Origin: Clostridia bacterium
GTDB lineage: Bacteria; Bacillota; Clostridia; Christensenellales; CAG-314
DNA: 64,000 bases
Direction: 5' to 3'
Assembly (NCBI GenBank): GCA_017500855.1
Contig: JAFVYC010000003.1
Coordinates: 70,442-134,441, forward strand
A model generated the notes under the pieces. That model worked only from the letters and a program-made list of their open reading frames with translations. It did no database searches and was not told where the DNA came from. The position numbers and the translations under genes are program-made. Below are positions 10,113 through 63,438 of this stretch, in pieces; position 1 is the first letter of the stretch; each line of letters starts with the position of its first letter.

Positions 10113-10118
10113 TATATA

Positions 10119-25716: not shown

Positions 25717-25793
25717 GTCGCTCTCCTTTGCTTGCACAACACAAACAAGTAAATTCTTTCTTCAGGTAGTAGTAATGTTAGGCTTTGTGAAAT

Positions 25794-28770: not shown

Positions 28771-28786
28771 AATAAGGAGAAAATTT

Positions 28787-34600: not shown

Positions 34601-34672
34601 GGGGCAAGCCGTTTGGCTTGCCCTTTTTCCCTACATTTCGCCGCCCCGTGTGTGGAAAAACGGGCAATTTGG
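34601..34672 (+). repeat. Junction element copy A: hairpin GGGGCAAGCC-GTTT-GGCTTGCCC + T-run + ...CCCCGTGTGTGGAAAAACGGGCAATTTGG
   Basis: Hand alignment of its reverse complement with 52975-53047 and 54465-54534. Confidence 0.7.
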
Positions 34673-34918
34673 TACGACAAACTTGGTAGACTAATTCGAG
34701 AAAACAACCCCACTACAGGTATTGACAAAACCGTTGTTTGGTGCTATGATATTAGTGGTAATATCTTGAGTCGTACCGAGTATGACTATACCACAGGCGA
34801 CCTGACAGACGTTGCTCCAACAGCAACATTTGCCTACACGTATGGCTCAAATTGGAAAGATCGGATGGACATTGAGAGTTATAGAACGAAGGAGAATATA
34901 AATGCTTACGCTTGCTGA
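34644..34918 (+). pseudogene. Orphan internal RHS fragment (no N-terminus, no toxin domain)
   Basis: Encodes ...WYDKLGRLIRENNPTTGIDKTVVWCYDISGNILSRTEYDYTTGDLTDVAPTATFAYTYGSNWK, then unrelated residues and a stop. About 87% nucleotide identity to 54276-54464 on the opposite strand. Confidence 0.65.
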
Positions 34919-35195
34919 AAAATTTGCAGTTGAAAGATTTCAACAACTAAGAATACCTGCGATTTACAAGCTAGATGATACCGACAATCTATTGTATGCA
35001 GAACATGTCGATTTTGATTTGTGCGAGATGCTGTTGCGAGGCAAAAAAGTTTCAAAAGAGTACGTGCAAGAAGAAATCAAAGAATTCTCGGTATTTTTGG
35101 AGCAAAGTACAATACTAGACTTTGATGATTATGAAAAAGAATATTTCAAGTTACTAGTTGAAGTGGTCAAGATTTTTATCACTCATAATTTGTAA
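34902..35195 (+). CDS. Orphan immunity-like protein (97 aa), paralogue of 34281-34556
   Basis: Shared N-terminal pattern L.EK...F..L..P......TD.LL..E. AAGGAGAAT RBS. Confidence 0.55.
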   Translation: MLTLAEKFAVERFQQLRIPAIYKLDDTDNLLYAEHVDFDLCEMLLRGKKVSKEYVQEEIKEFSVFLEQSTILDFDDYEKEYFKLLVEVVKIFITHNL

Positions 35196-35207
35196 ACCAC
35201 TTTTTAC

Positions 35208-35237
35208 GGCGGAAGAATTTTCTTCCGCTGTTTTTTT
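35208..35237 (+). terminator. Intrinsic terminator
   Basis: GGCGGAAGA / TCTTCCGC stem followed by T7. Confidence 0.75.
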
Positions 35238-35322
35238 ACGAAATGTCTTGCAAAAGTATTGTGTTGTTCTTGCAAAAGATATATATTTTGCGTAAGAATT
35301 TTTGATGTACAGGAGGACTACA

Positions 35323-36171
35323 ATGAAACATCAACTTACACAACAACATTTGCAAGAATTTGCCGACTATTTGAAAAATTGCGAAAAACAACCACAAACC
35401 ATCAGCAAGTACGTGCGAGATTGCACAATGCTTTTGCAATACTTGGGGGAAAAAGCGCTAGACAAAATTGCGCTGTTGGAGTACCGAGACCATCTCAAAA
35501 CGCAAAACTACAAGGTTGCCAGCATCAACGCTTCCGTTTCGTCCATCAACACCCTTGTGGATTTTTTGGGGTGGGGCGAGTGCCGAATTAAACGGCTTAC
35601 CGTGCAAAGCAAAAACTACAACAACCAGGAAGAATTGCTCACAAGGGACGAGTACATTCGGTTGCTTCGTGCAGCAAAAGGCAGGCCCCGTATGCTACTT
35701 ATGCTACAAACAATTTGTTCCACGGGCATTCGTGTGTCGGAGTTGCAGTACTTCACGTTGCAAAGTGCGTTCTCGGGCAAAGTGGTGGTGACAAACAAAA
35801 ACAAAACACGCACAATTTTGCTTCCCGATGCTCTCAGAAAAAGGCTGTACAACTACTGCAAGCAAAACAAAATTTACGGCAACGTGTTTGTTTCTCGGTA
35901 CGGTAAGCCTTTGGACAGGTGCAACATTTGGCGTGGCATGAAGGGGCTTGCAAAGCGTGCCAAGGTCAACCCCGTCAAGGTGTACCCACACAATTTGCGC
36001 AAGTTGTTTGCCCGAAGCTACTACGCCATCGACAGGGACATTGCCACCCTTGCCGACATTCTTGGCCACAGCAACATCAACACAACACGCATCTACATTC
36101 GCAACACCGACAGGGAGCATTTGCGCAAAATAAACAAAATGAAGTTGGTGATGAAAAGCAAAGATTTGTAG
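35323..36171 (+). CDS. Tyrosine site-specific recombinase (phage-integrase / XerC-XerD family)
   Basis: SAM-like N-domain, catalytic signature GIRVSEL ... HNLRKLF ... LGHSNINTTRIY. AGGAGGA RBS. Confidence 0.85.
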   Translation: MKHQLTQQHLQEFADYLKNCEKQPQTISKYVRDCTMLLQYLGEKALDKIALLEYRDHLKTQNYKVASINASVSSINTLVDFLGWGECRIKRLTVQSKNYNNQEELLTRDEYIRLLRAAKGRPRMLLMLQTICSTGIRVSELQYFTLQSAFSGKVVVTNKNKTRTILLPDALRKRLYNYCKQNKIYGNVFVSRYGKPLDRCNIWRGMKGLAKRAKVNPVKVYPHNLRKLFARSYYAIDRDIATLADILGHSNINTTRIYIRNTDREHLRKINKMKLVMKSKDL

Positions 36172-36172
36172 G

Positions 36173-36940
36173 CTAGGCAAACAGCGTTATTGCCGACAGG
36201 GCAAAGGGCACAACAAGGTACACGGCAAACGCCATCCAGCCCTTTTTGGCAAGGGAATTTTTGACCAAGTTTAGCGCAACAAACCCACTTGCAAAGGACA
36301 CAACAACGCCCACCACAATGCAGTACCAAGGCACAATTCCGCTACCCGTGGTTGCCATTTCCCAACTTTCCACCACAACGCTTGCCAAAATGACGGGGAT
36401 GGAAAGCAAAAAGGAAAAGTCGGCGCTTTGCCCCTTGTCCAGCCCAAACAGGCGCATGGTGCAAATGGTGCTTCCACTGCGGGAAAGCCCGGGGAACACG
36501 GCAATGCCCTGCACAATTCCCGTTGCAACAATGGCAAGCCAACTGCAATTTTCCACACCCGTGGTGCCTTTGTTGAAGTTTTCGGCAAGCACAATCAGCA
36601 CAATTGTTGTGGCAAAACCAATGGGAAGTAGCCCAACAAGCACGTGTTCCGGCACAAACAACTTCACAACAAGCGCAATGGCAAAGGTGGGCACGCTTGC
36701 AACAAGCAACCGCCCAAGCAGTTTGTTGGAAAACGGCCTTTTCAACAGCCTTGCAATTGTGCTTCGGTACACAACCAGCACAGCCAACAGCGTGCCGAAG
36801 TGCAACACCACGTCAAAAAACAGGTTGGACGGAACGTTCCACAATTTTTGCGCCAAAACAAGGTGTCCGCTACTGGAAACAGGCAAAAATTCCGTCAAAC
36901 CTTGCAACAAAGCCAAAAATATGCTGTGCAGAAGTGTCAT
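36173..36940 (-). CDS. uppP: Undecaprenyl-diphosphate phosphatase
   Basis: LQGLTEFLPVSSSGHLVL and GLSRSGSTI motifs; multi-pass membrane protein. Confidence 0.9.
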   Translation of the reverse strand: MTLLHSIFLALLQGLTEFLPVSSSGHLVLAQKLWNVPSNLFFDVVLHFGTLLAVLVVYRSTIARLLKRPFSNKLLGRLLVASVPTFAIALVVKLFVPEHVLVGLLPIGFATTIVLIVLAENFNKGTTGVENCSWLAIVATGIVQGIAVFPGLSRSGSTICTMRLFGLDKGQSADFSFLLSIPVILASVVVESWEMATTGSGIVPWYCIVVGVVVSFASGFVALNLVKNSLAKKGWMAFAVYLVVPFALSAITLFA

Positions 36941-37080
36941 AGAGCCCCTTTTTGCATTTACTTTTTTTTCACAATAGTGTAAAATATATATTATTGGTAC
37001 TGTACCAACAACAATGGCAAATGCTTTTGGTACAAGTGTACGCAAATTTTGTAAATTTTAGACCGCAAAGGAGTTACAAT

Positions 37081-38172
37081 ATGAAACTTGGAGTTGTAGG
37101 TTTGCCAAACGTAGGCAAAAGCACACTTTTCAACGCAATCACACAGGCAGGTGCGGAAATTGCCAACTACCCATTTTGCACGATAGAGCCAAACGTGGGC
37201 GTGGTGGCTGTTCCGGACGAAAGGTTGGACAAACTTGCTGCTTTGTACAATAGCAAAAAAATTACGCCAACCTACTTGAAGTTTGTAGACATTGCCGGCC
37301 TTGTTAAGGGCGCAAGCCGTGGCGAAGGTTTGGGCAACAAATTTTTGTCGCACATCCGTGAAGTGGATGCCATCGTGCACGTTGTTCGTTGCTTTGTAGA
37401 CAGCAACATCACCCACGTGGACGACACAATCAACCCCGTTGCCGACATGGAAACCATCAATTTGGAACTTATCCTTGCCGACATCGAAACGGTAAACAAT
37501 CGCCTTGCCAAAGCCATCAACATGCAAAAAACAGGGGACAAAAAGTACAAGGCGGAAGCCGAACTGCTTGCCAAAGTGCTTGCTTGGTTGGAAAGCGAAA
37601 AACCTGCCCGCACGCTTTTGTTGGACGAGGACGAGCAAGCCATGATGGACGAAATGCTTTTGCTCACTTCCAAGCCTGTTATCTACGCAGCAAACATTGC
37701 CGAGGACGACCTTGGCGCACCCACCAACGACCTTGTGAAACAAGTTGAAGCAAAAGCCAAGTTGGAAAACGCCGAAACGCTTGTTATTTGCGCCAAAGTG
37801 GAAGAAGAACTTTCCAAACTGGACGCAGAAGAAAAGGAAATGTTTTTGGAAAGCTACGGCATTGCCGAAAGTGGCTTGAACCGTCTTGTTGCCAAGTGCT
37901 ACAAATTGTTGCATTTGGTAAGCTACCTCACCGCCGGCGAAAAGGAAACTCGTGCTTGGACCATCAACGAAGGCACCAAGGCACCGCAAGCGGCAGGCAA
38001 AATCCACTCCGACTTCGAAAAGGGCTTCATCCGTGCGGAAATTGTGCCCTACGAAACAATGTTGGAAATGGGTGGCTACAACCAAGCCAAGGAACACGGC
38101 AAGGTGCGTAGCGAAGGCAAGGACTACGTCATCAAGGATGGCGACGTGGTGCTGTTCCGCTTCAACGTGTAG
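37081..38172 (+). CDS. ychF: Ribosome-binding ATPase YchF
   Basis: MKLGVVGLPNVGKSTLFNA, DIAGLVKGAS and the C-terminal TGS-like ...IRAEIV.. motif. AAAGGAG RBS. Confidence 0.95.
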   Translation: MKLGVVGLPNVGKSTLFNAITQAGAEIANYPFCTIEPNVGVVAVPDERLDKLAALYNSKKITPTYLKFVDIAGLVKGASRGEGLGNKFLSHIREVDAIVHVVRCFVDSNITHVDDTINPVADMETINLELILADIETVNNRLAKAINMQKTGDKKYKAEAELLAKVLAWLESEKPARTLLLDEDEQAMMDEMLLLTSKPVIYAANIAEDDLGAPTNDLVKQVEAKAKLENAETLVICAKVEEELSKLDAEEKEMFLESYGIAESGLNRLVAKCYKLLHLVSYLTAGEKETRAWTINEGTKAPQAAGKIHSDFEKGFIRAEIVPYETMLEMGGYNQAKEHGKVRSEGKDYVIKDGDVVLFRFNV

Positions 38173-38290
38173 TGCGTGCAAAGGCTTTTTGCCAATTTGA
38201 AGAGTTTCAAGCAAGGTTTTGCCCTTGCAAAAGTAGTTGCGCAATGCAAAAAAAGCCACGGTTTTCTACACTGTGGCAAAGGAGAAAAAC

Positions 38291-39928
38291 ATGACGCAAA
38301 AATTCAAAAAGGTTTCCTTGGGGAACAAACTTGCCTTTGCCTGTGGCGACATTTTTGGCGGTGGCAGTTTCAACATCATCAACTTTTTGTTCGTGCCATT
38401 TTTGACGTTGGTTGTGGGCATACCCATGATCTACGTAACACCCATTTTGCTGTTTACCAAAATTTGGGATGGCTTGATTGACCCATTCATTGGAATGGTT
38501 ACCGACGGCAAGCGCCCCGGCAAGTTTGGTAAGCGCAGGTACTTCATGCTTGTGGCAGCGCCACTTGTGTGGATTGGGCTTGTGATGCTGTTTTTCCCTT
38601 GGAACATGGTGACAAACAGCGTGTTTTGGAAGTGCGTTTTCGTGGTGCTGATGTACGTTTTGTACGCAACGGCGCAAAGTTTTGTGCTTATTCCCTACTA
38701 CTCGCACGCAAGCGAAATGACGGGGGATTTTTCCGAACGCAACAAGGTCAACGCCGTGCGCCTTGCTTTCAGCATTATGTCGTCGCTTGTTTGCGTGGTT
38801 GTTCCGGGCATGATTGCAAGCCCCTCTATTTCCGCATCCAACAACGACAACGGCATGTGCTACCTTGTGATGGCAGGCATTTTCGGTGGTGTTTTCACCC
38901 TGTCAATTTTGGTGACGGCGCTGTTCAGCAAGGAACAAATCGTTACCCCTGCCGTGCAAAACAAGTTCAGTTTTGCCGAATTTGTTCGCCCACTAAAAGT
39001 AAAAACCTATCGCCAGTACCTTGGCATGCAAATGTGCGCAAGCATGGGCATGGCTGTGATGAGTAGCTACTTCTACACCTACTGCGATTTCTTCATTCGC
39101 AGGGACACAAACTTCCTTGCGCTAAGCACCGGTTCCGGCAGGGCATTTGCCGTTGCAACCATTGCCGCAGCAATGATGTTTGTTGCGCAAATCATCGCAT
39201 TGCCCATCTACTTGCACATCATCAAAAAACGTGGCAAGCGCTTTGCCTACATTTTTGGCGCAACGCTGTGGATTGTTGTTGCGTTGGTGTTGTTCCTTAT
39301 GCCGGCAGAACCAATTGGCTCGGCAGTTGTGGGAAGCAACGGACTTGTTGCCACCACACAGGGCGTTCCCGATTGGGCAATTGTTGTGTTTGGTTTGTCG
39401 CTTGGCATTGGCATTGGTGGAACGGTGTTTGTTCCACACAGCAGTTTTGGCGACGTGTGCGACGTTGGCGAGTTGCAATTTGGCAAGCGCACGGAAGGTG
39501 CGTTCTCCGGCCTCACAAACTTTCTCAACACAACTGCGCAAGCAATTGGCTTGTCTATTCCGTCGGCAATCATTGGCACGGCTGGCTACGTGGAAACCAA
39601 GTACGTTTCCTTGGAGCAGTACCAAGCCTACCTGGATGGCACAAGCGACATTGTTGCCGACCTTGGCTTGGCGCTTGGCGATTTCAAAGCCACCGTGTAC
39701 GAAAACAGCGTGCAACTTGTGCCCATGCTTCAACACGACGGCGCACAGTTGGCAATTCGCATTGCATTCACGTTGCTTCCCATTGCCATCATGGTTGTTG
39801 GCATTGTGGTTGCCAGCAAGTACAAACTGACTGCAACTTTGCAACAACAAATTGTGCAAACCAACGCTTTGGACCACAACAGCGACCTGTACAAACAGCA
39901 ACAACAAGACTTGCTTGGCAAGCTGTAA
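38291..39928 (+). CDS. MFS transporter of the glycoside-pentoside-hexuronide (GPH) symporter type
   Basis: About 12 hydrophobic helices; N-terminus LGNKLAFACGDIFGGGSFNIINFLFVPFLT is typical of GPH/MelB-like carriers. Confidence 0.8.
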   Translation: MTQKFKKVSLGNKLAFACGDIFGGGSFNIINFLFVPFLTLVVGIPMIYVTPILLFTKIWDGLIDPFIGMVTDGKRPGKFGKRRYFMLVAAPLVWIGLVMLFFPWNMVTNSVFWKCVFVVLMYVLYATAQSFVLIPYYSHASEMTGDFSERNKVNAVRLAFSIMSSLVCVVVPGMIASPSISASNNDNGMCYLVMAGIFGGVFTLSILVTALFSKEQIVTPAVQNKFSFAEFVRPLKVKTYRQYLGMQMCASMGMAVMSSYFYTYCDFFIRRDTNFLALSTGSGRAFAVATIAAAMMFVAQIIALPIYLHIIKKRGKRFAYIFGATLWIVVALVLFLMPAEPIGSAVVGSNGLVATTQGVPDWAIVVFGLSLGIGIGGTVFVPHSSFGDVCDVGELQFGKRTEGAFSGLTNFLNTTAQAIGLSIPSAIIGTAGYVETKYVSLEQYQAYLDGTSDIVADLGLALGDFKATVYENSVQLVPMLQHDGAQLAIRIAFTLLPIAIMVVGIVVASKYKLTATLQQQIVQTNALDHNSDLYKQQQQDLLGKL

Positions 39929-39948
39929 ACAAACAAATTTTGCAAAAA

Positions 39949-39980
39949 AACGGTAGTAAATTTCGCTACCGTTTTTGTTT
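39949..39980 (+). terminator. Intrinsic terminator
   Basis: AACGGTAG / CTACCGTT stem followed by a T-run. Confidence 0.7.
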
Positions 39981-40030
39981 TACTTTTGTGCAATCTTTGC
40001 GCAAATTCGGCACAAAGGTATTGACAAATG

Positions 40031-40058
40031 CACACCGTGTAGTATAATGTAGTTGTAG
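40031..40058 (+). promoter_or_regulatory. Sigma-A-type promoter
   Basis: TTGACA, 16-nt spacer, TATAAT. Confidence 0.6.
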
Positions 40059-40128
40059 CAAGCAATTGTTTGCAAATTGTGGCAAAATCGTGCGCTTGCA
40101 ATTTGCAACTTTTGGGGAGGAATAGGCT

Positions 40129-40890
40129 ATGAAAAAGTTTCTTTCAATATTTTTGGTCTTTGCAATGCTTCTCACAGCACTGTGTTTTGCAGGGTGCGAA
40201 TATATCTTTGACAAAATCAGGGAAGACATCAACAAGAACAAGGTGAACGTTTGTTTGGATGGTGTATACTACAAGTTGTATTTGAACGTAAGCAAAGCTT
40301 GCGTCTATTCTTTGGACGACAAAAACGGCGAGCAAACAAAGTTTGTCATTCAACCCTACGTAGAGCACGAAGGTGTGCAGTACACTGTCACAGAGGTGGG
40401 AGAGTACAAATTTCAAGCAGTAGGCAGTCCGTACTTTTTGCTATCCACCCGTATGCAAGAAGTGTTCATTCCCGAAACGGTAGAGGTGATACATTTCGAG
40501 TGCCTTGAACTTTGCGATACGCTTCAAAAAGTAGACGTCCACCCAAACAACCCCAACTACGCAAGCCACGACGGCATTGTGTACACAAAAGACATGAAAA
40601 CTCTACTTTTTGGCCCATTAAACAGGGGTGAATATAAAAAATACTACGTGTTGCCAAGCGGAGTAGATGAAATAACTGTAATTGGCAGTGTTTGGGGCGC
40701 AAAGCACATTTTTGTTCCAAGCAGTGTGAAAAAGGCAACTGGTTTTATAGAACGGGGTAGAGTGGTTTATTTTGAAAAAACAGAGTTGAGCCAAGACGAG
40801 CAAAGATATCTTGATTTTGCGGAAATACACTTGGGCTACACTTTGGAACAATTTCTTCAAGAAATGGCAGAACTGTACGGGGAGGAATAG
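40129..40890 (+). CDS. BspA-type leucine-rich-repeat (LRR_5-like) lipoprotein
   Basis: Lipobox LCFAGC. Repeat pattern FIPETVEVIHFECLELCDTLQKVDVHPNNPNYASHDGIVYTKDMKTLLFGP. Ends ...MAELYGEE. Confidence 0.75.
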   Translation: MKKFLSIFLVFAMLLTALCFAGCEYIFDKIREDINKNKVNVCLDGVYYKLYLNVSKACVYSLDDKNGEQTKFVIQPYVEHEGVQYTVTEVGEYKFQAVGSPYFLLSTRMQEVFIPETVEVIHFECLELCDTLQKVDVHPNNPNYASHDGIVYTKDMKTLLFGPLNRGEYKKYYVLPSGVDEITVIGSVWGAKHIFVPSSVKKATGFIERGRVVYFEKTELSQDEQRYLDFAEIHLGYTLEQFLQEMAELYGEE

Positions 40891-40893
40891 GCT

Positions 40894-41802
40894 ATGAAAA
40901 AGTTTCTTTCAATAGTTTTGGTGGCAACAATAGTGCTGTCTATTCTTACCGTGGGGAATGTTCTTGACATACGTGTGAAAAAGGATAATTTTTATTTCGA
41001 CTTGAACATTGTAACCCAAACAGCCATTCTGAAAGGTGTTGAAGAAAGCAAACCTGTTGTTGAAATTCCCGGGCACGTGTTTCACTGGGGAATTGACTTC
41101 ACGGTGACAACAATCCGCACCGACGAGGTTGGCATTTGGGATTCAAGGGAGTATGCGCAACTGTGCATGGAGAACATTCCATTGCTCAAAATTCCTTCCA
41201 CAGTAGCATTTATCGAAAGGGATTCCGTGCGCAACTGTGTGGAAAATTTTGAAGTGAGTGAGCGCAATTTATTCTTTTCTCACTACGATGGAGTTTTGTA
41301 CAACAAGGACTTGAGCAAGATGCTGTGCTACGGCAGGTTTCGCAGTAGCACAGTTTTGAACATTCCCAAGGAAACACGCCACAACCCAGTAGAAACACTA
41401 CCGGTGAATGGTGGAGATTTGTGCTACGTTACGGAAATCATCGCTCATCCCGAAAGTCAGTATTTTTCAAGTGTAGATGGAGTTTTGTTTTCCAAGGATG
41501 GCTCAGAGTTGGTCAAGTACCCAACAAAGAAACAAGATTTGTACTACATTGTTCCAAGTACAGTACGCAAAATTACCCGTTATGCCATCCCAAAATTTGG
41601 AGAATTCTCCTATGTGTACATTCCTGCAACGGTTGTAGAAATTGATGAAACAATCAATTTTATTAGCCGTACAGTATATTGCGAAGTGCCGGAATTGCCG
41701 AAGGATTGGGCGTTTCATCAATCTGTTTCTACTATAGTATTCTTCGATGTTACAGAACAACGATTTTTAGATGAAATGAAAGAATTATATGGGGAGGAAT
41801 AA
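40894..41802 (+). CDS. BspA-type leucine-rich-repeat surface protein, tandem paralogue
   Basis: Same MKKFLSI N-terminus and ...MKELYGEE C-terminus. LRR_5-like segments include SVDGVLFSKDGSELVKYP. Confidence 0.75.
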   Translation: MKKFLSIVLVATIVLSILTVGNVLDIRVKKDNFYFDLNIVTQTAILKGVEESKPVVEIPGHVFHWGIDFTVTTIRTDEVGIWDSREYAQLCMENIPLLKIPSTVAFIERDSVRNCVENFEVSERNLFFSHYDGVLYNKDLSKMLCYGRFRSSTVLNIPKETRHNPVETLPVNGGDLCYVTEIIAHPESQYFSSVDGVLFSKDGSELVKYPTKKQDLYYIVPSTVRKITRYAIPKFGEFSYVYIPATVVEIDETINFISRTVYCEVPELPKDWAFHQSVSTIVFFDVTEQRFLDEMKELYGEE

Positions 41803-41806
41803 GTTT

Positions 41807-41893
41807 ATGAACAACAAAACAAAGTTTATGGTAGCAATAGTTTTGGCGTGTGTTTTTGCTTTGTCAACTTTGCCAATTGGTGCGATGGAGTAG
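41807..41893 (+). pseudogene. Truncated third member of the array (signal-peptide-only remnant, 28 codons)
   Basis: Preceded by the same GGGGAGGAATA junction. MNNKTKFMVAIVLACVFALSTLPIGAME, then a stop. Confidence 0.4.
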
Positions 41894-42040
41894 ATTACCT
41901 ATATGGAAAGGGTAAAGAAAAAATCTTCGAGTAAAATTACGCTACATCAACTACCTGTTTTGACCAAGCTAGGAGCCTTGCTCTCGGCTACAGCAATAAA
42001 AATGTTTTAGATAATATATTTCAAAACAAAAGAAAACAAA

Positions 42041-42080
42041 AAAAGGCAACGCCAAAATGGTGTTGCCTTTTGTGTTTTTG
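42041..42080. terminator. Bidirectional terminator hairpin
   Basis: A-run, GGCAAC...GTTGCC, T-run, between convergent genes. Confidence 0.65.
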
Positions 42081-42086
42081 GAAAAG

Positions 42087-43316: not shown

Positions 43317-43466
43317 GGTGCTCTCCTTGCAAACCGTTTTTTTTGCAAAACGGAAGATAATAAACAAAGTTTAGCACAAACGGCACTTTCCGTCAACAAT
43401 TGCGCAAAAGTTGTTGGGCAAGAAAGGCAAAAACGCCTTGCAAAACACGTTGCAGGGCGCAAAAAC

Positions 43467-47100: not shown

Positions 47101-47273
47101 GTTGCTTGTGTTGCCAAAAGTTTGGGCAAAATATACCTTGACTTGCAAATTTTCTTGCTTGCAAAAATGGCAGTTTGCAAGTCGTTTCAATGCAAAATTT
47201 GCCCAAGTGGCAAGCATTTGCAAAAAAAATGCAAAAAAGTTGTCAACAATGCCAATGCACCAAAACAAAATTG

Positions 47274-47302
47274 TTGACATTTTGCCACTTTTGTAGTACG
47301 AT
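47274..47302 (+). promoter_or_regulatory. Sigma-A-type promoter of scfA
   Basis: TTGACA, 17-nt spacer, TACGAT. Confidence 0.55.
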
Positions 47303-47343
47303 AGACACAACAAAAAAATCTACACTCATGGAGGGTTGAAAAA

Positions 47344-47499
47344 ATGAAACACATCGTAACATTGGAAACTCGTAATCTTTGCGACAGCGCTAAAAACGGT
47401 GGTTGTGGCGAATGCCAAACTTCTTGCCAATCTGCTTGCAAAACAAGCTGTGGTATTGCAAACCAAAAATGCGAAAACGCCGATAAAGAAAGCAAATAA
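47344..47499 (+). CDS. scfA: SCIFF (six-cysteines-in-forty-five) ribosomal peptide precursor, 51 aa
   Basis: My own translation: MKHIVTLETRNLCDSAKNGGCGECQTSCQSACKTSCGIANQKCENADKESK. It carries the GGCGECQTSCQSACKTSC signature and a GGAGGG RBS. It is not in the ORF track because it is under 60 aa. Confidence 0.85.
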   Translation: MKHIVTLETRNLCDSAKNGGCGECQTSCQSACKTSCGIANQKCENADKESK

Positions 47500-47511
47500 C
47501 AAACCTGACGG

Positions 47512-47542
47512 AGTTGTCGCAAATGCGACAACTTCTTTTTTT
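47512..47542 (+). terminator. Hairpin + T-run between scfA and scfB (partial terminator / attenuator)
   Basis: AGTTGTCGC-AAAT-GCGACAACT followed by TCTTTTTTT. Confidence 0.6.
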
Positions 47543-47568
47543 GCAGAACATTCACAAAGGAACACAAC

Positions 47569-48951
47569 ATGATTCATCAGTACAAACTTGGTGGCCACAA
47601 CATTGTTTTGGACGTGTGCAGTGGTTCGGTGCACGTGGTGGACGAAATTGCCTACGACGTAATTGAACTGTACCAAAGCGCAACCAAAGAGCAAATTGTT
47701 GCCAACCTTCACCAAAAATACCAACACACGGGCGTTTCCGCCGAGGAAATTGCCGAGTGCTACTGCCAAGTGCAACAACTGGAACAGCAAGGCAAACTTT
47801 TTGCCCCAGACACTTTCCGTTCCATTGCCGGCAAACTAAAAGCCAAGAGCGCAGGCGTTGTAAAGGCGCTTTGTTTGCACGTTGCGCACACTTGCAACCT
47901 CAACTGCGCCTACTGCTTTGCAAGCCAAGGCAAGTACAGTGGCGAGCGTGCCATCATGAGTTTGGAAGTAGGCAAGCGTGCATTGGATTTTCTTGTTGAG
48001 CACAGCGGAACACGCAAAAATTTGGAAGTGGACTTTTTCGGTGGCGAACCGTTGATGAACTGGCAAATGGTAAAGGACCTTGTTGCCTACGCTCGCAGTA
48101 TCGAAAAGCAACACGGCAAGCATTTTCGCTTCACGCTTACAACCAACGGCGTGCTTGTGGACGACGACGTCATTGAGTTTTCCAACAGGGAAATGGACAA
48201 CGTGGTGCTGAGTTTGGACGGACGAAAGGAAATTCACGATCGCTACCGTGTGGACTACCTAGGCAATGGCAGTTGGGAAAAAATCGTGCCAAAATTCCAA
48301 AAGTTTGTACAAAAGCGTGGCGACAAAAGCTACTACATGCGTGGCACTTTCACACACGCCAACCCCGACTTTTTGCAAGACATTCGCACCATGTTGGATT
48401 TGGGATTTACCGAACTTTCCATGGAACCCGTGGTGTGTGGCAAGGACGACCCATCTCGCTTGACGGACGAAGACTTGCAAGTGGTGATGCAACAGTACGA
48501 GCAACTTGCCGAATTGATGATAGAGCGTGACAAGGCAGGCAAACCCTTCACCTTCTACCACTACATGATTGACCTGACGGGTGGCCCTTGCATCTACAAA
48601 CGTGTGAGTGGCTGTGGCTCGGGAACGGAGTACATGGCCGTGACGCCTTGGGGAGATTTGTACCCCTGCCACCAATTTGTTGGCGACGAAAAGTTCCGTT
48701 TGGGGGACATTTGGAAGGGCGTGACCAACACGGAAATTGTTGAGCAATTTGCCGGTTGCAACGTCTACGCACACCCCGAATGCCACGATTGTTGGGCAAG
48801 ATTATACTGCTCGGGTGGTTGCGCAGCCAACGCCTACCACGCAACAGGCAAAATCACAGGCATCTACCAAGACGGTTGCAAACTGTTCAAAAAGCGCATG
48901 GAATGCGCCATCATGGTGGCTGTGGACAAACTGACACGAGGTCAAAACTGA
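47569..48951 (+). CDS. scfB: Radical SAM/SPASM thioether-forming maturase of SCIFF
   Basis: CNLNCAYC radical-SAM cluster motif and a C-terminal SPASM cysteine clusters (CGSGTEY..., CHDCWARLYCSGGC). Lies directly after scfA. Confidence 0.9.
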   Translation: MIHQYKLGGHNIVLDVCSGSVHVVDEIAYDVIELYQSATKEQIVANLHQKYQHTGVSAEEIAECYCQVQQLEQQGKLFAPDTFRSIAGKLKAKSAGVVKALCLHVAHTCNLNCAYCFASQGKYSGERAIMSLEVGKRALDFLVEHSGTRKNLEVDFFGGEPLMNWQMVKDLVAYARSIEKQHGKHFRFTLTTNGVLVDDDVIEFSNREMDNVVLSLDGRKEIHDRYRVDYLGNGSWEKIVPKFQKFVQKRGDKSYYMRGTFTHANPDFLQDIRTMLDLGFTELSMEPVVCGKDDPSRLTDEDLQVVMQQYEQLAELMIERDKAGKPFTFYHYMIDLTGGPCIYKRVSGCGSGTEYMAVTPWGDLYPCHQFVGDEKFRLGDIWKGVTNTEIVEQFAGCNVYAHPECHDCWARLYCSGGCAANAYHATGKITGIYQDGCKLFKKRMECAIMVAVDKLTRGQN

Positions 48952-50285
48952 TGGACACCCCAATTTGCAAATTTGTACACACGTATTGCAAAAACAACAC
49001 CGTGCGCATGCACATGCCGGGGCACAAGGGTTGCAACTTTTTGGGTTGCGAACACCTTGACGTGACGGAAGTTTTTGGCGCCGACAGTTTGTACCAAGCA
49101 AACGGAGTCATTGCACAGTCAGAGCAAAACGCATCCAAACTGTTTGGTTGCAACACGTTCTACTCGGCGGAAGGCTCGTCGCTTGCAATTCGAAGCATGC
49201 TGTACCTTGTTTTGCTGTTTGCCAAAAGTTGTGGCAAGTCGCCAACGGTGCTTGCCTGCAGAAACGTGCACAAAAGTTTTTTGTCCGGCGTGGCATTGTT
49301 GGATTTGGACGTTGTTTGGCTTCCGCACAACGGCGCAAACTATCTCAGTTGCAACGTGGATGCAAATTTTTTGGACGGCTTTTTGCAAGCAATGGAAAAC
49401 AAGCCCACGGCGCTGTACGTCACTTGCCCCAACTACCTTGGGGAAATGCAAAACGTGCAAAAACTGGCACACGTGTGCCACAAACACGGTGTTTTGTTGG
49501 CAGTAGACAACGCCCACGGCGCCTACCTTGCCTTTTTGCAAAACAACCAACACCCAATGGCTTTGGGCGCAGACGTGTGTTGCGATTCGGCGCACAAAAC
49601 GCTTCCCGTGTTGACGGGTGGCGCCTACTTGCACGTTTCCCACAATGCGCCAAAAATTTTTGTTGAACAAGCACGCAACGCACTGTCGCTGTTTGGTTCA
49701 ACAAGCCCATCCTACTTGATACTGCAATCCCTCGACCTTGCCAACAAACGCCTTGCCGAAGGCTACGCAAGTGAACTTCAACAGTTTGCATTGCAAGTGC
49801 AACAGGCAAAAAGCAAAATTTGCAGTTTTGGTTGGAAAGTGGTTGGGGAAGAACAACTAAAAATCACGCTTCAAACCAAGCAAAGTGGCTACACGGGTGT
49901 GGAAATTGCCAACGTTCTTCGCCAAAACAACGTTGAATGCGAGTTTTGCGACCAAGACTTCGTTGTGCTGATGCTTTCCCCACAAAACACCGCCAGCCAA
50001 CTTCAATTGCTGGTTCAAGTGCTTCAAAACATCCCACAAAAACAGCCAATTTGCACAACGCCCCCACGGTTTTGCCAACCAATTGGCAAAACAAGCATTC
50101 GCCAAGCAATGCTTGGCAACAAGGTGGCTTTGCCAACAAGGCAATGTTTGGGCAAAATTTGCGCCGACGCCAACGTTGGTTGCCCACCTGCCGTGCCCAT
50201 TGTGATGTGTGGCGAAGTCATCGACCAAAACGCCATCGACGCAATGCTGTACTACGGCATCGACGTTTGCCAAGTGCTTGCCTAG
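48951..50285 (+). CDS. PLP-dependent Orn/Lys/Arg decarboxylase family protein
   Basis: MHMPGHKG N-terminus and the SAHKTLPVLTGGA PLP-lysine motif. Its ATG overlaps the scfB stop (ATGA-type coupling). Confidence 0.85.
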   Translation: MDTPICKFVHTYCKNNTVRMHMPGHKGCNFLGCEHLDVTEVFGADSLYQANGVIAQSEQNASKLFGCNTFYSAEGSSLAIRSMLYLVLLFAKSCGKSPTVLACRNVHKSFLSGVALLDLDVVWLPHNGANYLSCNVDANFLDGFLQAMENKPTALYVTCPNYLGEMQNVQKLAHVCHKHGVLLAVDNAHGAYLAFLQNNQHPMALGADVCCDSAHKTLPVLTGGAYLHVSHNAPKIFVEQARNALSLFGSTSPSYLILQSLDLANKRLAEGYASELQQFALQVQQAKSKICSFGWKVVGEEQLKITLQTKQSGYTGVEIANVLRQNNVECEFCDQDFVVLMLSPQNTASQLQLLVQVLQNIPQKQPICTTPPRFCQPIGKTSIRQAMLGNKVALPTRQCLGKICADANVGCPPAVPIVMCGEVIDQNAIDAMLYYGIDVCQVLA

Positions 50286-50406
50286 TGCAAAAGCACGAGC
50301 ATTGGTCACAAGGGCTTCAAACTGCAAAGTTGGCAGTTTGTGCCAAATGGGCGCAAATCAACACACAAAATTTCAAAATTACATCCCACAAAAGTTGCAA
50401 TTGCTG

Positions 50407-50435
50407 TTGCAAAAAGCGCACAAAAAGTGTATAAT
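50407..50435 (+). promoter_or_regulatory. Sigma-A-type promoter abutting the dnaA start
   Basis: TTGCAA, 17-nt spacer, TATAAT. The -10 ends 9 nt before the dnaA ATG. Confidence 0.45.
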
Positions 50436-50444
50436 GGAGATACT

Positions 50445-51806
50445 ATGCTAAAACTCAATCAAATTTGGAACAACATTTTGCTGGAAGTGGAATCTAAGGT
50501 GGCAACGCTTGCCTACGACTTGTACATCAACTCGCTTGAACCTGTTGGAATGTACAAGGACCGTTTGGTGCTTCTTGCCGGATCCAAAGCACTCAAAAAC
50601 ATTGTTGTCAACAACTACAAAGACGTGCTAAAAAAGGCAACTGCCAAGGTTTTCCCATCCATTATAGACATTGAAATCATCACGGAAGAGGACGTTCCGC
50701 ACCTTGGTGCTGTGCAAAAGGAAGTTGACATCCCCGTTAGTAGCGCCTACGTTGCCGACGTGGAAGAAAAGGCTTGCTTTGTTGCGCAGTACACCTTCGA
50801 CAACTTTGTTGTTGGCAAAAGTAACGAGTACGCCCACGCCGTGGCTCGTGCCGTTGCCGAAAATCCCGGCACAAAGTACAACCCCGTGTTTTTGTGGGGT
50901 GGCGTTGGTTTGGGCAAAACGCACTTGATGCACGCCATTGGCAACATGCTTCAACGCAACTTCCCCGAAAAGCGCATCATGTACGTAACTTGCGACCAGT
51001 TTGTCAACGAGTTTATCGAGTCGCTTCACAACAACACCGACCCCAACGCAATGAAACATTTCCGTGCAAAGTATCGCAAGTTGGACGTGTTGATGATGGA
51101 CGACGTGCAGTTTTTGGCAAACAAGGAAGGCACGCAGGAAGAAATGTTCCACACCTTCAACGAACTGTACCTTGCGGACAAGCAAATCATCTTGAGTAGC
51201 GACCGTCCGCCCAAGGAAATCAAAATTGAAGAAAGGCTCAAAACTCGCTTTGCAACGGGCATCATTGCCGACATTCAACCCCCAAATTTGGAAACACGTA
51301 TTGCCATTTTGCAAAAGAAATGCAACGCCAAGGGCTACAACATCAACTTCAACGTGCTAAGCCTCATTGCCGAACGCATCACAACCAACATCAGGGAAAT
51401 GGAAGGCATGCTCAACCGCATCATCAGCTACTCCACACTTGTTGGTGGCGACCCCAACGACATGGGCGTTGTAAACGATGCGCTTCGAGACTACGCCTCT
51501 GCCGAAAAGGAAGTCATCACAATCGACCAAGTTGTTTCCGCCACTTGCGAGTACTTCCGCATCAAAAAGGAAGACCTCATTGGCAAAAAGAAGAACAAGG
51601 AAATTGTTGTGCCAAGGCACATTTGCGTGTACCTCATTTGCGACATTTTGGAAGGCACCCCGCTGGAAGCCATTGGCGAGTACTTTGGTGGCAGGGACCA
51701 CACAACAATGATCCACGCAAGGGACAAAATCAGCGAAGCCATCAAAACCAACAGCACAACGGCATCGCAGGTAAAGGACATCAGGGACAAACTTTTCAAC
51801 AGATAG
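50445..51806 (+). CDS. dnaA: Chromosomal replication initiator DnaA
   Basis: GGVGLGKTHLMHAIGN Walker A, LMMDDVQFL, a sensor region, and the C-terminal DNA-binding domain ...GGRDHTTMIHARDKI. Confidence 0.95.
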   Translation: MLKLNQIWNNILLEVESKVATLAYDLYINSLEPVGMYKDRLVLLAGSKALKNIVVNNYKDVLKKATAKVFPSIIDIEIITEEDVPHLGAVQKEVDIPVSSAYVADVEEKACFVAQYTFDNFVVGKSNEYAHAVARAVAENPGTKYNPVFLWGGVGLGKTHLMHAIGNMLQRNFPEKRIMYVTCDQFVNEFIESLHNNTDPNAMKHFRAKYRKLDVLMMDDVQFLANKEGTQEEMFHTFNELYLADKQIILSSDRPPKEIKIEERLKTRFATGIIADIQPPNLETRIAILQKKCNAKGYNINFNVLSLIAERITTNIREMEGMLNRIISYSTLVGGDPNDMGVVNDALRDYASAEKEVITIDQVVSATCEYFRIKKEDLIGKKKNKEIVVPRHICVYLICDILEGTPLEAIGEYFGGRDHTTMIHARDKISEAIKTNSTTASQVKDIRDKLFNR

Positions 51807-51821
51807 TTTCAACAACTTTGT

Positions 51822-51850
51822 GGGCAAGGAAATTCCTTGCCCATTTTTTC
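51822..51850 (+). terminator. Intrinsic terminator of dnaA
   Basis: GGGCAAGG-AAATT-CCTTGCCC followed by ATTTTTT. Confidence 0.75.
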
Positions 51851-51973
51851 AAAAAAAAGTTGCCGTTTGCTTTGTTCACCGTGCATTGCAAGGTGGGGCA
51901 AAATGGCAACGTTTGTGCAAAAACTTGCACCCGTGGTGCGCTTTTTGGGCGCAGTGGTGCAACAGGAGGCAAC

Positions 51974-52819
51974 ATGCAACACACAATTTCCAACCAAACT
52001 TTTGGGCAAGAACGTGCCTTGTACAACTTGCAAAATGCAACGGTGCAAAACTGCAGTTTTTGTGGGCAGGAAGATGGCGAATCGGCTTTGAAGGAATGCC
52101 GAAACATTGTTGTGCAACACAGCAACTTTCATCTGCGCTACCCATTGTGGCATTGCCACGGTGTGCAAATTTCCCATTGCACGCAAACGGAAACTTGCCG
52201 TGCGCCACTTTGGTACTGCTCGCAAGTGGACGTTCAACACAGCCAACTTCACGGCATCAAAGCCGTGCGAGAGTGCAACAACGTTGCCATTTCCAACAGT
52301 AGCATCCAAAGTGATGAATTTGGTTGGAAAACTTGCAATTTGCGCCTTGCCAACTGCACGGCAAGTGGCAAGTACTTTTTGTTTGGCGCCGAAGGCGTTG
52401 AACTTTGCAACGTGGAAATGAGTGGCAAGTATTCCTTCCAGTATGTAAAAAACGCAACCATCAGCCATTGCACCTTGGACACCAAGGATGCCCTGTGGCA
52501 TGCGGAAAACGTGTTGGTGGAGCATTGCGTTGTCAAGGGCGAGTACCTTGCTTGGTACAGCAAGAACGTCACTTTCCACAATTGCACAATTGTTGGCACA
52601 CAACCCCTTTGCTACTGCCAAAACCTCAAATTGGTGGATTGCATCATGGTGGATGCCCACCTTGCCTTCGAAAACAGCACCGTCCAAGCAACGGTAAACA
52701 GCCACATCCTTTCGGTAAAAAACCCCATTGGCGGAAGCATCGTTGCCCACAGCATTGGCGAAGTGATTGTGGACAACCCCATCTATCCATCCACTTGCAA
52801 AATTTCCACCAAGCAGTAG
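51974..52819 (+). CDS. DUF3737 family (right-handed beta-helix-like) protein
   Basis: FGQERALYNLQNATVQNCSFCGQEDGESALKECRNIVVQHSNFHLRYPLWH is typical of DUF3737. AGGAGG RBS. The upstream part of the tracked ORF overlaps dnaA and was rejected. Confidence 0.8.
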   Translation: MQHTISNQTFGQERALYNLQNATVQNCSFCGQEDGESALKECRNIVVQHSNFHLRYPLWHCHGVQISHCTQTETCRAPLWYCSQVDVQHSQLHGIKAVRECNNVAISNSSIQSDEFGWKTCNLRLANCTASGKYFLFGAEGVELCNVEMSGKYSFQYVKNATISHCTLDTKDALWHAENVLVEHCVVKGEYLAWYSKNVTFHNCTIVGTQPLCYCQNLKLVDCIMVDAHLAFENSTVQATVNSHILSVKNPIGGSIVAHSIGEVIVDNPIYPSTCKISTKQ

Positions 52820-52974
52820 CGCATTGCGCCAAAACCTCCACCCCGTGGTGGCAAAAACTGCACGGCTTTGTGCGCAAACAAGCAAAGTTTTGCACACGTG
52901 GCGCAAATTTTCACATTGCAACAAAAAGGCGAGTTTTCTTTTGCAAACCCGCCTGTTTTTTGCCCTTTCCCGTG

Positions 52975-53047
52975 CCAAATTGCCCGTTTTTCCACACACG
53001 TGGTGGGGAAATAGGCAAAAAAAAGGGGCAAGCCTTTCGACTTGCCC
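52975..53047 (-). repeat. Junction element copy B (not followed by an RHS fragment)
   Basis: CCAAATTGCCCGTTTTTCCACACACGTGGTGGGGAAATAGG-A8-GGGGCAAGCC-TTTCGA-CTTGCCC. Direct repeat of copy C and inverted relative to copy A. Confidence 0.7.
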
Positions 53048-53096
53048 TAAATTATAGCTTGCTACATTGTTAAACTTCAGCATCAAATCCCAAAAC

Positions 53097-53552
53097 TCAA
53101 TTTTCCTGAGAAATTTTTTCTTTGATGGTATATAACTCATCGGTGATTTCCTTTGTGTTAGAAAATAATTTGTATACAAACAAGATTTTTGTTCCGTCTT
53201 TCAAGGAAATAACGACGTATTGATTCCAATCATCAATATCCAAAAAAGCAATATCGGAAAATTTGATTCTTTTTGCTACAAAGGTTGTGCAGTAAGCCAA
53301 ATTCTTGGAGGTTAGCCCCAGTTTTGTGACAATTTTGTCGTTTTCAAATTGCAAATAACAACTGAAAGACCAAATATACACGACACTTTCAACTGCTATG
53401 CACACCAGTAATAATATTGCTCCTATTTGTTTTTCCATTTCAATGCATAAAAAACAAACAAAGATGCTTGCCAGTATTAGTACTGGCATTAGAATCCACA
53501 ATTTTACAGGTCTATATTTTTTCATTTCAGATTTTTCCACTTTCAATTGCAT
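53097..53552 (-). CDS. Hypothetical 2-TM membrane protein with a PH-like soluble domain (immunity-like)
   Basis: Two N-terminal hydrophobic helices, AT-rich composition, and the same architecture as 53634-54161. The start may instead be 53525. Confidence 0.55.
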   Translation of the reverse strand: MQLKVEKSEMKKYRPVKLWILMPVLILASIFVCFLCIEMEKQIGAILLLVCIAVESVVYIWSFSCYLQFENDKIVTKLGLTSKNLAYCTTFVAKRIKFSDIAFLDIDDWNQYVVISLKDGTKILFVYKLFSNTKEITDELYTIKEKISQEN

Positions 53553-53633
53553 TCTGTTAGTTGTCCCCTTTCGCCCGGTTTAGAAATAACTCATCAAACA
53601 CAACGATGCTTTGGTTATGTTCTTGTTTTGCTA

Positions 53634-54161
53634 CTACTCTTTAGCATTTATTTCGGCGATGAGTTGGTTGGCTTTTTTACAAAACTCTTCCAATCGTTCT
53701 CGTTGCCTACTGTTATTATCAAAAAACAGTCTGAAACCCAGCGAGCCTGTAGACCAAGACCTCAATTTGTACACCTTGCCATTATTGCAAACTATATCAA
53801 TGGTAAAACGGTTGGAGCGGAGTTCCTCTTTTGTACTTGTCACCGTCACCTCGATTTTTGCTAGTTCGTCAATATTTATTTTTCTTTTCGTAAAACCGGG
53901 GCTTTCTCTAACAATAAATGAATTAGAATCCATATCTAATCTTAGGTACGTTTTGAAGACCAAAAAGAAAATATATACATCAATTAGCAACGCTACTAGC
54001 AGCATCGACAATACACGAAATGTATATTCTTTTACCATCGTAAGTCCAAACAACGACAGCAAAGTCAATCCTATTGCAAAATACAGCACAATTGTTTTTT
54101 CAGCAACGGGCAACTGATATAATGTGATTCTATTCGAAGAGGAGTTTTTTAATTTCCCCAT
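53634..54161 (-). CDS. Hypothetical 2-TM membrane protein with a PH-like soluble domain (immunity-like)
   Basis: AGGAGA RBS and two TM helices (IVLYFAIGLTLLSLFGL, VLSMLLVALLIDVYIFFLVF). Lies directly downstream of the orphan RHS fragment. Confidence 0.6.
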   Translation of the reverse strand: MGKLKNSSSNRITLYQLPVAEKTIVLYFAIGLTLLSLFGLTMVKEYTFRVLSMLLVALLIDVYIFFLVFKTYLRLDMDSNSFIVRESPGFTKRKINIDELAKIEVTVTSTKEELRSNRFTIDIVCNNGKVYKLRSWSTGSLGFRLFFDNNSRQRERLEEFCKKANQLIAEINAKE

Positions 54162-54210
54162 AGTAATGATCTCCTATTTCATTTAGAAAAGAAATTAGCA
54201 GTGCTTCCGC

Positions 54211-54486
54211 TTAGGTAGTTGGATTGCCTGCTTGGTCGTAGGCAATGGATTGACCATTGAAAGACACAAGTTGTCCTTTCCAATTTGAGCCATACGTGTA
54301 GGCAAAAGTAGCTGTTGGAGCAACGTTGGTCAAATCCCCTGTGGTATAGTCATACTCACTTCTACTAACAATGTTATCACTAATATCATAGCACCATGTT
54401 GTAGTTTTGTCAATACCTGTAGTGGGGTTGTTTTCTCGAATTAGTTTGCCAAGTTTGTCGTACACAAATTGCCCGGTTTTCCACAC
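54211..54486 (-). pseudogene. Orphan internal RHS fragment, second copy
   Basis: VWKTGQFVYDKLGKLIRENNPTTGIDKTTTWCYDISDNIVSRSEYDYTTGDLTNVAPTATFAYTYGSNWKGQLVSFNGQSIAYDQAGNPTT, then a stop. No N-terminus and no toxin domain. Confidence 0.65.
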
Positions 54487-54534
54487 ACGGGGTGGGGGAA
54501 TGCAGATAAAAAGGGCAAGCCATTTGGCTTGCCC
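54465..54534 (-). repeat. Junction element copy C
   Basis: CAAATTGCCCGGTTTTCCACACACGGGGTGGGGGAATGCAGATAAAAAGGGCAAGCC-ATTT-GGCTTGCCC. Confidence 0.7.
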
Positions 54535-55848: not shown

Positions 55849-55854
55849 TGTTTG

Positions 55855-57132: not shown

Positions 57133-57156
57133 TTCGTCTCCTATACTTTTGCACAA

Positions 57157-63361: not shown

Positions 63362-63438
63362 CAAGGCTAAACTTGCACCCCGTGTTGTCGAAAACGCACG
63401 TATTCAAAGGCAGTCAAAGGAAATTTGACCAAAAAAAC

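Follow-up and report, generated by a model that had tools for sequence, protein, structure and literature searches.

This report concerns a pair of inverted repeats, here called arm A and arm B, in a 64,000-nucleotide (nt) window of an uncultured Clostridia genome (contig JAFVYC010000003.1), and the 19.4-kb core-genome block that lies between them and carries dnaA. The sequence-only reading, an earlier interpretation of the same DNA, had described two inverted composites at 34601-34859 and 54276-54534, each consisting of a junction element and an RHS fragment, and had proposed that recombination between them flips the origin-proximal block. Gapped local alignment of 34602-34859 (+) with 54534-54276 (-) bore out the composites themselves, with 223 of 259 columns matching (86%). 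A repeat finder resolved the pair into three abutting inverted blocks (34602-34671/54465-54534, 34672-34731/54404-54463, and 34739-34859/54276-54396). The sole indel between the arms is 1 nt, located where the noncoding junction meets the RHS fragment; the arms are identical over at most 42 consecutive nt, starting at 34690; and the flanks part ways exactly at 34859/34860. The arms, which we call cassette heads, and the related elements in the window are as follows:

34602-34859, + strand: arm A, a cassette head with a terminator (34601-34624) and T-run, a core (34641-34671), and an RHS remnant from 34672
54276-54534, - strand: arm B, a cassette head with a terminator (54536-54511), a core (54495-54465), and an RHS remnant open reading frame (ORF) at 54486-54211
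52971-53047, - strand: junction C, the terminal head of array 2, with a hairpin (53047-53026), a T-run, and a core, followed by a non-RHS flank
52838-52858, + strand: inverted core-like site CCACCCCGTGGTGGCAAAAAC, 19 nt past the DUF3737 stop codon and opposite junction C across a bidirectional terminator
34672-34918, + strand: truncated RHS remnant ORF (YDKLGRLIREN...) with no toxin domain left and no Pfam match

All of the parts that had been listed for the composites (hairpin, T-run, the string GTGTGTGGAAAA(A/C)CGGGCAATTTG, and an RHS frame) are present. The head hairpins (GGGCAAGCC/GGCTTGCCC in both arms) have perfect G+C-rich stems followed by a T-run and score as terminator-like at 34601-34624 (+) and 54536-54511 (-). 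They are accompanied by a conserved noncoding core of about 30 nt, CCACCCCGTGTGTGGAAAAACGGGCAATTTGG. The string occurs three times in the window, compared with 0.00 occurrences expected from shuffled sequences, and its third copy (52976-52999, -) belongs to junction C, which was found in all strains and has no RHS fragment. The earlier inventory of two copies was therefore correct as far as it went, but it overlooked junction C and the core-like site at 52838-52858. The latter is 2 edits from the core (0.05 matches expected from shuffles), lies 128 nt from the facing core of junction C, and is kept in another same-species locus (L029). A 16-mer of this site, CCCGTGGTGGCAAAAA (52842-52857), is repeated at 62210-62225 within a conserved gene for a 544-amino-acid (aa) protein of unknown function (60938-62572), and a weaker core-like match is found at 63375-63395.

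The RHS fragment of the arms reads YDKLGRLIRENNPTTGIDKT..., a YD-repeat frame, with a weak PF05593 match on ORF 54211-54486. In arm A, an internal deletion past 34859 leads to the last ~19 codons of the remnant ORF, which overlap the start of the next gene, imm97. The fragment shares 33% aa identity over 88 residues with the adjacent full-length RHS gene and no nucleotide repeat, and it does not derive from that gene.

Exact scans for the core in GTDB species genomes, JGI metagenomes, and IMG/VR returned no match, and a scan allowing 4 mismatches across 80 dnaA loci of related species returned one marginal match; the element is thus known only from this species. Two other identities for the core were considered and rejected. 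A structured RNA was ruled out by the folding of the arm A core, which, with the terminator set aside, was no better than that of shuffled sequences (z = -0.96); an Rfam search over array 2 gave nothing credible at E<=1. A sigma-54 promoter (TGGCACG-N-TTGG), judged by eye, has a spacing 2 nt too long and TTGG rather than TTGC, and arm B lacks GGCAC. The window contains no tRNA genes and hence no tRNA-type integration site.

Two strain-variable arrays of RHS-linked genes

The heads belong to two arrays on opposite strands. Array 1 (~28.8-35.2 kb, +) begins with a full-length RHS toxin gene and its immunity gene, while array 2 (~52.9-54.8 kb, -), between jag and DUF3737/dnaA, holds immunity-type genes only. 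The genes in and beside the arrays are as follows:

28787-34273, + strand: full-length RHS/YD-repeat toxin gene, 1828 aa (PF05593, E=1.2e-16 on ORF 28634-34273)
34281-34556, + strand: imm91, presumed cognate immunity gene, a 91-aa ORF 8 nt past the RHS stop codon with no family match
34902-35195, + strand: imm97, orphan immunity-like gene, followed by a terminator (35206-35231)
35323-36171, + strand: Xer-like tyrosine recombinase, 282 aa (PF00589, E=1.5e-22; PF02899), at the 3' end of array 1 and specific to this species
50445-51806, + strand: dnaA, 453 aa (TIGR00362, 480 bits against a cutoff of 344)
53097-53552, - strand: h151, orphan small gene (ORF) of array 2
53634-54161, - strand: h175, orphan small gene of array 2, a weak EbsA-like membrane protein
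54553-54801, - strand: zn82, small zinc-ribbon-like gene, the first array 2 gene after jag in this strain

The main RHS protein contains six YDxxG(R/N) repeats (found by regular expression) and the core-end motif NPFRWKGHYFDTETGFYYINGRYYDPQTASF at aa 1516-1548, beyond which lies a variable C-terminal region of 288 aa; the enterobacterial PxxxxDPxGL form of the core end is absent from this protein. The same motif recurs ahead of different tails in the orphans of one strain (L002), and other strains hold full RHS orphans of 450-551 aa that carry it with other tails. Longer RHS ORFs of other strains contain the same stretch as the RHS fragment of the heads. Copies of imm91 that are 95-96% identical at the nucleotide level occur as orphans in array 2 of six other strains. 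From its position and this recurrence, imm91 is presumed to be the cognate immunity gene of the main RHS toxin.

Same-species loci from many independent metagenomes were gathered by exact-protein look-ups centered on the recombinase, imm97, imm91, zn82, h175, and jag. Array content differs in nearly every strain, ranging from 2 to ~14 small genes, and the flanks are constant. Four immunity families, including imm91, that lie in array 1 in some strains turn up in array 2 in others, with nucleotide identities of 94-99.5%. One cassette is fixed: imm97 is the last of array 1 in every strain seen and never varies. The right end of a shared cassette block, c8, lies inside the core. Arrays contain one to six cores, in one direct orientation within each array (22 of 35 loci from other strains), and their G+C content is 0.37-0.42 versus 0.45-0.50 in the flanks.

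To compare the heads, we aligned 27 distinct copies gathered via the core and then repeated the collection using the RHS part alone. In the alignment, the upstream hairpins vary with compensatory stem changes, the core is nearly invariant, and the RHS remnant diverges by about 20%. All 17 core-type heads recovered through the RHS part alone had 0-2 mismatches in 28 nt of the core. This second collection also yielded type 2 heads, which have another truncation point, and copies still inside long RHS ORFs, and two strains (L002 and L004) have the core's left half fused to another RHS position. These three kinds of variants indicate that heads arose more than once and that the commonest type then spread.

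Each arm also carries a promoter-like sequence, TTGACA-17-TGcTATGAT, at 34722-34750 in arm A and 54413-54385 in arm B, in both cases directed into the bracketed segment. It matches the consensus at 11 of 12 positions and has an extended -10 element. The TTGACA-17-TGnTATGAT form is intact, with the same spacing, in all 27 distinct heads, including four of type 2 and four that are still within longer RHS ORFs. The orphan immunity gene or genes downstream are most likely transcribed from this promoter. Because every head has a terminator ahead of it and at least one small gene behind it, we infer that the stub has been retained for supplying the orphan-immunity promoter. The sequence-only reading had offered, as its fallback, that the repeats are decaying paralogous remnants. 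This fallback comes nearer than the flip, but the remnants look functionally retained as promoter-bearing heads.

Orientation of the dnaA block and the tyrosine recombinase

In the window, arm A is preceded by dnaN (24610-25737, -), DegV, a GT92-type glycosyltransferase, the RHS gene (28787-34273), and imm91. After imm97 come the tyrosine recombinase, BacA (-), YchF, a major facilitator superfamily (MFS) transporter, two paralogous genes of unknown function, and an M18 peptidase (-). The segment continues with gerAC/AB/AA (-), a SCIFF-type radical S-adenosylmethionine (SAM)/SPASM enzyme, a pyridoxal phosphate decarboxylase, dnaA, DUF3737, and junction C, beyond which lie h151 (-), h175 (-), arm B, zn82 (-), jag, yidC, yidD, and rnpA (-), and then a metallo-beta-lactamase-fold gene. 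The genes reported between the repeats, namely the recombinase (PF00589), the gerA operon, the radical-SAM/SPASM enzyme, and dnaA (TIGR00362), were thus all confirmed, and by its model score the dnaA gene is genuine. It is unusually distant from dnaN and from rpmH, which is annotated on the - strand with the rnpA-jag genes in a same-species metagenome-assembled genome (MAG; L032), and it stands apart from the rnpA-jag operon (jag, yidC, yidD, and rnpA; 55165-57737, -).

Inversion of the dnaA block found no counterpart in the assemblies. The reference layout was seen in all contigs extending across an arm or the boundary of an array, with the RHS array leading through imm97 and the recombinase to BacA, and jag leading through array 2 to DUF3737/dnaA; no complete recombinant contig was seen among those crossing an arm. 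Three recombinase-centered contigs reach DegV upstream (L001, L004, and L006), and both arrays are on one 99-kb contig (L003 and L031). Of the 10 jag-centered places shown, 8 extend far enough, and all of these reach DUF3737/dnaA. All zn82 contigs that pass the arm run into h175, and all imm91 contigs that do so run into imm97. Short Logan contigs end within the shared runs, as expected of a repeat. In a collinear related species (L039), the order is dnaN-, DegV+, BacA-, YchF+, MFS+, dnaA+, and the island of GT92, RHS, array, and recombinase is missing between DegV and BacA; the orientation therefore predates the repeats. The sequence-only reading's anatomy (junction element plus RHS fragment, an orphan immunity gene behind it, and the recombinase inside arm A) held up, but the flipping of the origin block that it built on this anatomy found no support. 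A flip of this kind would land each immunity gene behind an equivalent head with no obvious change in expression, because each arm has its own terminator and its own inward promoter.

The comparison across strains and related species that the sequence-only reading had called for, looking for both orientations, returned the reference orientation only, with one ambiguous contig end. At 1278-1345 of contig L015 (ENA ERZ28653856, scaffold_114228), 54306-54276 is joined to 34860-34882, so that arm B, with all of its B-specific variants, is followed by 23 nt of the inner flank of arm A, then N10, and lastly B's usual flank. In no other contig is arm B joined to the inner flank of arm A. The last B-specific base lies exactly 55 nt before the contig end, which equals a common assembler k-mer size, and the end could be either a rare recombinant junction or an assembly-graph artifact. 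Mosaic head alleles with A-type and B-type parts occur in other strains (L117 and L123).

In related species (DnaA 69-83% identical; L036-L080), the order and orientation of dnaA, dnaN, DegV, rnpA-jag, and BacA-YchF-MFS differ almost everywhere. We considered the arrays as a cause of these rearrangements and rejected them, as the breakpoints there hold ordinary genes. The DnaA relatives at 74-83% identity come from uncultured Clostridia MAGs labeled Christensenellaceae, Oscillospiraceae, and Candidatus Fimimonas; NCBI files the last of these under Myxococcaceae incertae sedis, and related MAGs are titled Corallococcus sp. and Bacteroidaceae. Such labels look wrong because a gerA operon and a SCIFF maturase are the content of spore-forming Clostridia. 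A search of the window for oriC by DnaA-box clustering found no 500-nt stretch with at least 3 boxes. Perfect boxes occur in the window at just two positions, 2254 and 25902, and the second of these falls in the spacer between dnaN and DegV. GC skew over the 64 kb was uninformative for oriC.

We then considered the recombinase itself. Alignment to the XerC-like structure 4a8e and to XerA (5hxy) locates its catalytic residues in GIRVSEL, pHnLR, GHS, and RIY, and from the residues present the enzyme is predicted to be catalytically intact. It falls under all NCBIfam cutoffs (XerD, 106 versus 330 bits; XerC, 93 versus 335; XerA, 120 versus 220) and also under those of the integron integrase models (TIGR02249, 47 bits against a cutoff of 265; NF011946, 36.5 against 435). 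The gene is present in all recombinase- and imm97-centered contigs examined, and related species without the island do not have it at that position. Its closest relatives outside the species are 279-aa proteins that are ~50-53% identical; a single-protein search of genome contigs for relatives found none. All four homologues examined (five loci) have ACATAAT-N4-ATTATGT inverted repeats starting 14-17 nt after the stop codon. The repeats are 18-70 nt long and 224-330 nt apart (L019 10857-11208, L022 10845-11124, L126 5854-6175, L128 5857-6257, and L129 5857-6307; a 50-nt step in the arms of the repeats distinguishes the last two), and they precede either an S-layer homology-domain protein or signal-peptidase/Peptidase_M73/sortase-Cna_B (pilus) operons. 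These homologue loci look like uncharacterized invertible promoters of surface structures.

In this respect, the nearest relatives of the recombinase resemble the invertons of gut Firmicutes, with repeats flanking segments of the invertible-promoter type. The locus studied here does not: the stop codon of the convergent BacA gene is 2 nt from that of the recombinase, which leaves no room for an adjacent switch, and ACATAAT-N4-ATTATGT-type sites are at chance level in the window (4 versus 2.8 expected). No strong short inverted-repeat pair was found in the window. The suggestion that the recombinase acts on the long repeats is thus at odds with the habit of its relatives, which use short repeats beside their own genes. 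A weak inverted repeat at 35233-35263/35424-35454 (31 nt, 77% identity) spans the recombinase promoter, its start codon, and its first 34 codons. We rejected it as an inverton at the 5' end of the gene, given its weakness and the lack of a flipped copy in any contig. One contig (L119, equal to L137) has an N10 gap at the equivalent of window position 35424, the inner edge of the right arm of this repeat.

Explanations for the inverted heads

The reading we favor, to which we assign a probability of roughly 75%, is that each arm is the head of an orphan RHS toxin/immunity cassette, paralogous to the other and located in one of two strain-variable arrays on opposite strands, and that the pair does not constitute a switch. 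The anatomy of the heads, their repetition, array variability from strain to strain, the exchange of shared cassettes seen when the two arrays are compared, and the single orientation in assemblies were observed directly. Its functional part, which predicts promoter activity, immunity function, and a route of recombination, would run as follows. A head would comprise the intrinsic terminator of the preceding cassette, the ~30-nt core, and a 5'-truncated, toxin-less YD-repeat remnant with an extended -10 promoter, and this promoter would lead to transcription of the downstream orphan immunity gene or genes. The arrays would act as an immunity reservoir against the RHS toxins of sister strains and would be reshuffled by homologous recombination or gene conversion via the heads and 3' flanks, probably with DNA of other strains. 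The inverted geometry would be a by-product of having two arrays on opposite strands.

Such a locus would work like known main-plus-orphan Rhs/WapA toxin-immunity loci. In Enterobacteriaceae, orphan rhs-CT/rhsI modules lie downstream from the principal rhs gene (Koskiniemi et al. 2014, PMC3967940). As in Rhs orphan and WapA-WapI loci, a small immunity gene sits next to a full-length YD-repeat toxin whose C-terminal domain is variable; as in the Rhs modules, rhs fragments truncated at the 5' end, with neither start nor export signals, each have a linked small gene (PMC3967940), strain variation is strong, and the repeated rhs sequence is a substrate for recombination. Unlike those modules, most orphans here are toxin-less and reduced to a promoter-bearing stub, a conserved noncoding core stands ahead of every head, and a second, toxin-less array lies 20 kb off on the other strand. 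The stub is, moreover, unrelated at the nucleotide level to the resident main gene, which makes a Salmonella-like fusion of main gene and orphan impossible in this strain.

Several points weigh against the favored explanation. The small proteins of the arrays matched no known immunity or toxin family, which is why their immunity role is argued from position and strain comparison, and the promoter of the heads is a consensus match only. A role as promoter and terminator does not account for the strong conservation of the core, nor for the terminal core that abuts a non-RHS flank or the inverted core-like site nearby. Every strain keeps an intact recombinase at the end of array 1, to which this explanation gives no role. 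Finally, metagenome assemblies give the majority arrangement, and a minority orientation would be missed.

In another reading, which we consider unlikely, occasional RecA-type recombination between inverted heads flips the dnaA block at low frequency, as a by-product of homology. Two such flips via different head pairs would shift cassettes between arrays and restore the orientation (flip-flop exchange). The arms, with 259 nt, 86% identity, and a 42-nt identical run, would offer the homology, and most strains have several inverted head pairs. Cassettes that are near-identical between array 1 in one strain and array 2 in a different one fit this scheme, but they are explained without inversion by uptake of DNA from other strains or by gene conversion. 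The A/B-mosaic head alleles (L117 and L123) also speak for it, as does the L015 contig with arm B and 23 nt of the arm A inner flank; its 55-nt stretch, however, makes an artifact of a mixed-strain assembly graph plausible. Nearly all related species have a different gene order around dnaA, dnaN, and rnpA-jag, but ordinary genes rather than arrays are found at the breakpoints of those rearranged genomes, and no complete recombinant contig was found among those crossing the arms.

Dispersed rhs repeats may in this way act as portable homology for large rearrangements, like the Rhs elements of Escherichia coli. Recombination between E. coli rhsA and rhsB, as Lin, Capage and Hill reportedly described in 1984, yields large duplications. 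The E. coli repeats are direct and extend over kilobases, and the rearrangement was observed there, whereas the repeats here are inverted, 259 nt long, and 86% identical, and no rearranged genome was found. The name Rhs itself stands for "rearrangement hot spots" (explained in PMC3967940). The idea of rhs repeats as homology for large rearrangements, which the sequence-only reading applied to an inverted pair, is therefore not new in kind, and the rearrangement is unobserved here.

An integron-like or rAID-1-like system, with the core as the recombination site at which the Xer-like recombinase excises and inserts cassettes in both arrays, is improbable in our view. rAID-1 loci of Bacteroidales are defined by a 5' XerD-like recombinase and at least two co-directional genes, the recombinase being at least 44% identical to BF9343_RS08045 (Ross et al. 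2019, 10.1101/471110). Alongside the recombinase, they contain arrays of orphan immunity genes and intergenic sequences that are repetitive (10.1101/471110), and the present locus similarly has low-G+C orphan immunity arrays, repetitive intergenic sequences, and a Xer-type recombinase at one end. The immunity genes of rAID-1 match toxins of other strains, which we liken to the cassette sharing seen here. The present locus differs in having the recombinase at the 3' end of array 1, beside the cassette that never varies and followed by the convergent BacA gene, with no recombinase at array 2, and in having a spore-forming Clostridia host and RHS toxins rather than type VI secretion system effectors. 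The core is the best-conserved part of the heads, which would suit a recombination site, but its conservation could also stem from only the RHS part recombining with diverged RHS genes, and it has no obvious inverted binding arms around a 6- to 8-nt spacer. In every strain the terminal core abuts a noncassette flank, as it would had a circle been inserted at a site in the chromosome, an inverted core-like site faces it 128 nt away, and the end of the c8 cassette block falls within the core. The varied truncation points (type 2 heads and core-left-half joins) instead suggest illegitimate and homologous events. The recombinase is intact in all strains and missing at the same position in island-less related species, but its relatives are promoter invertases that use another site, and integron integrase models score far under cutoff (47 versus 265 bits). 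An equally long shot is the more specific version in which the core is the recombination site and a recombinase of an invertase family was recruited to move promoter-bearing cassettes between arrays, as excised circles or through paired flips of the dnaA block. If true, this would be a Firmicute counterpart of the integron-like rAID-1, with near-origin inversion as a working intermediate.

The programmed switch proposed by the sequence-only reading, in which the recombinase inverts the origin-proximal block, seems very improbable. A tyrosine recombinase from an invertase-type family does lie directly inside arm A, but a single orientation is seen everywhere examined, and arm B with this RHS fragment was found only in strains with zn82/h175/h151, whereas the recombinase is in all recombinase- and imm97-centered contigs examined. 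The arms carry equivalent promoters and terminators, so that a flip would have no evident regulatory effect. The site of the family is not above chance in the window, and the repeats used by the family are 220-330 nt apart beside the gene's own stop codon. That the repeats reflect chance similarity or misassembly is hardly credible: the window, which runs in reverse to ENA contig ERZ27256852:k141_111814, is a MEGAHIT metagenome contig, but zero core matches are expected by chance, and the same structure was assembled independently from other samples (L012/L035, L130, L006, L137, and L138).

If the arrays of promoter-bearing cassettes behave as we propose, an uncultured gut Clostridia lineage would be storing immunity against sister-strain RHS toxins behind stubs that serve as portable promoters. 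The locus would then be a natural example of orphan immunity outside Proteobacteria and Bacteroidales, with two arrays that trade cassettes. It yields testable toxin/immunity pairs, such as the 288-aa RHS tail with imm91 and its array 2 copies. Its significance would be larger if the core and the recombinase proved to be a cassette-moving system. No new mode of replication-origin control is revealed.

Other features of the window

Within the bracketed block, repeats at 40114-40157/40879-40922 and 40847-40889/41759-41801 involve two adjacent genes of unknown function (253 and 302 aa) with no family match. The two genes share near-identical ribosome-binding sites and signal-peptide starts and look like tandem paralogues that may encode lipoproteins; in one strain (L117 and L007) the gene content at this position is different. 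A SAM riboswitch (RF00162, 53 bits), the sole Rfam match at the gathering threshold, lies at 10116-10205 (+) upstream of ORF 10198-10593, with a PNP_UDP_1 phosphorylase-family gene (10871-11884) further downstream and near-identical terminator hairpins (9989-10009 and 10845-10865) flanking it. A 120-nt direct repeat with 92% identity is found at 2336-2455/3252-3371, its copies being 916 nt apart. The palindrome TGTTTCACGTGAAACA occurs twice, at 491-510 and 530-549, 39 nt apart, and may be a regulator binding site.

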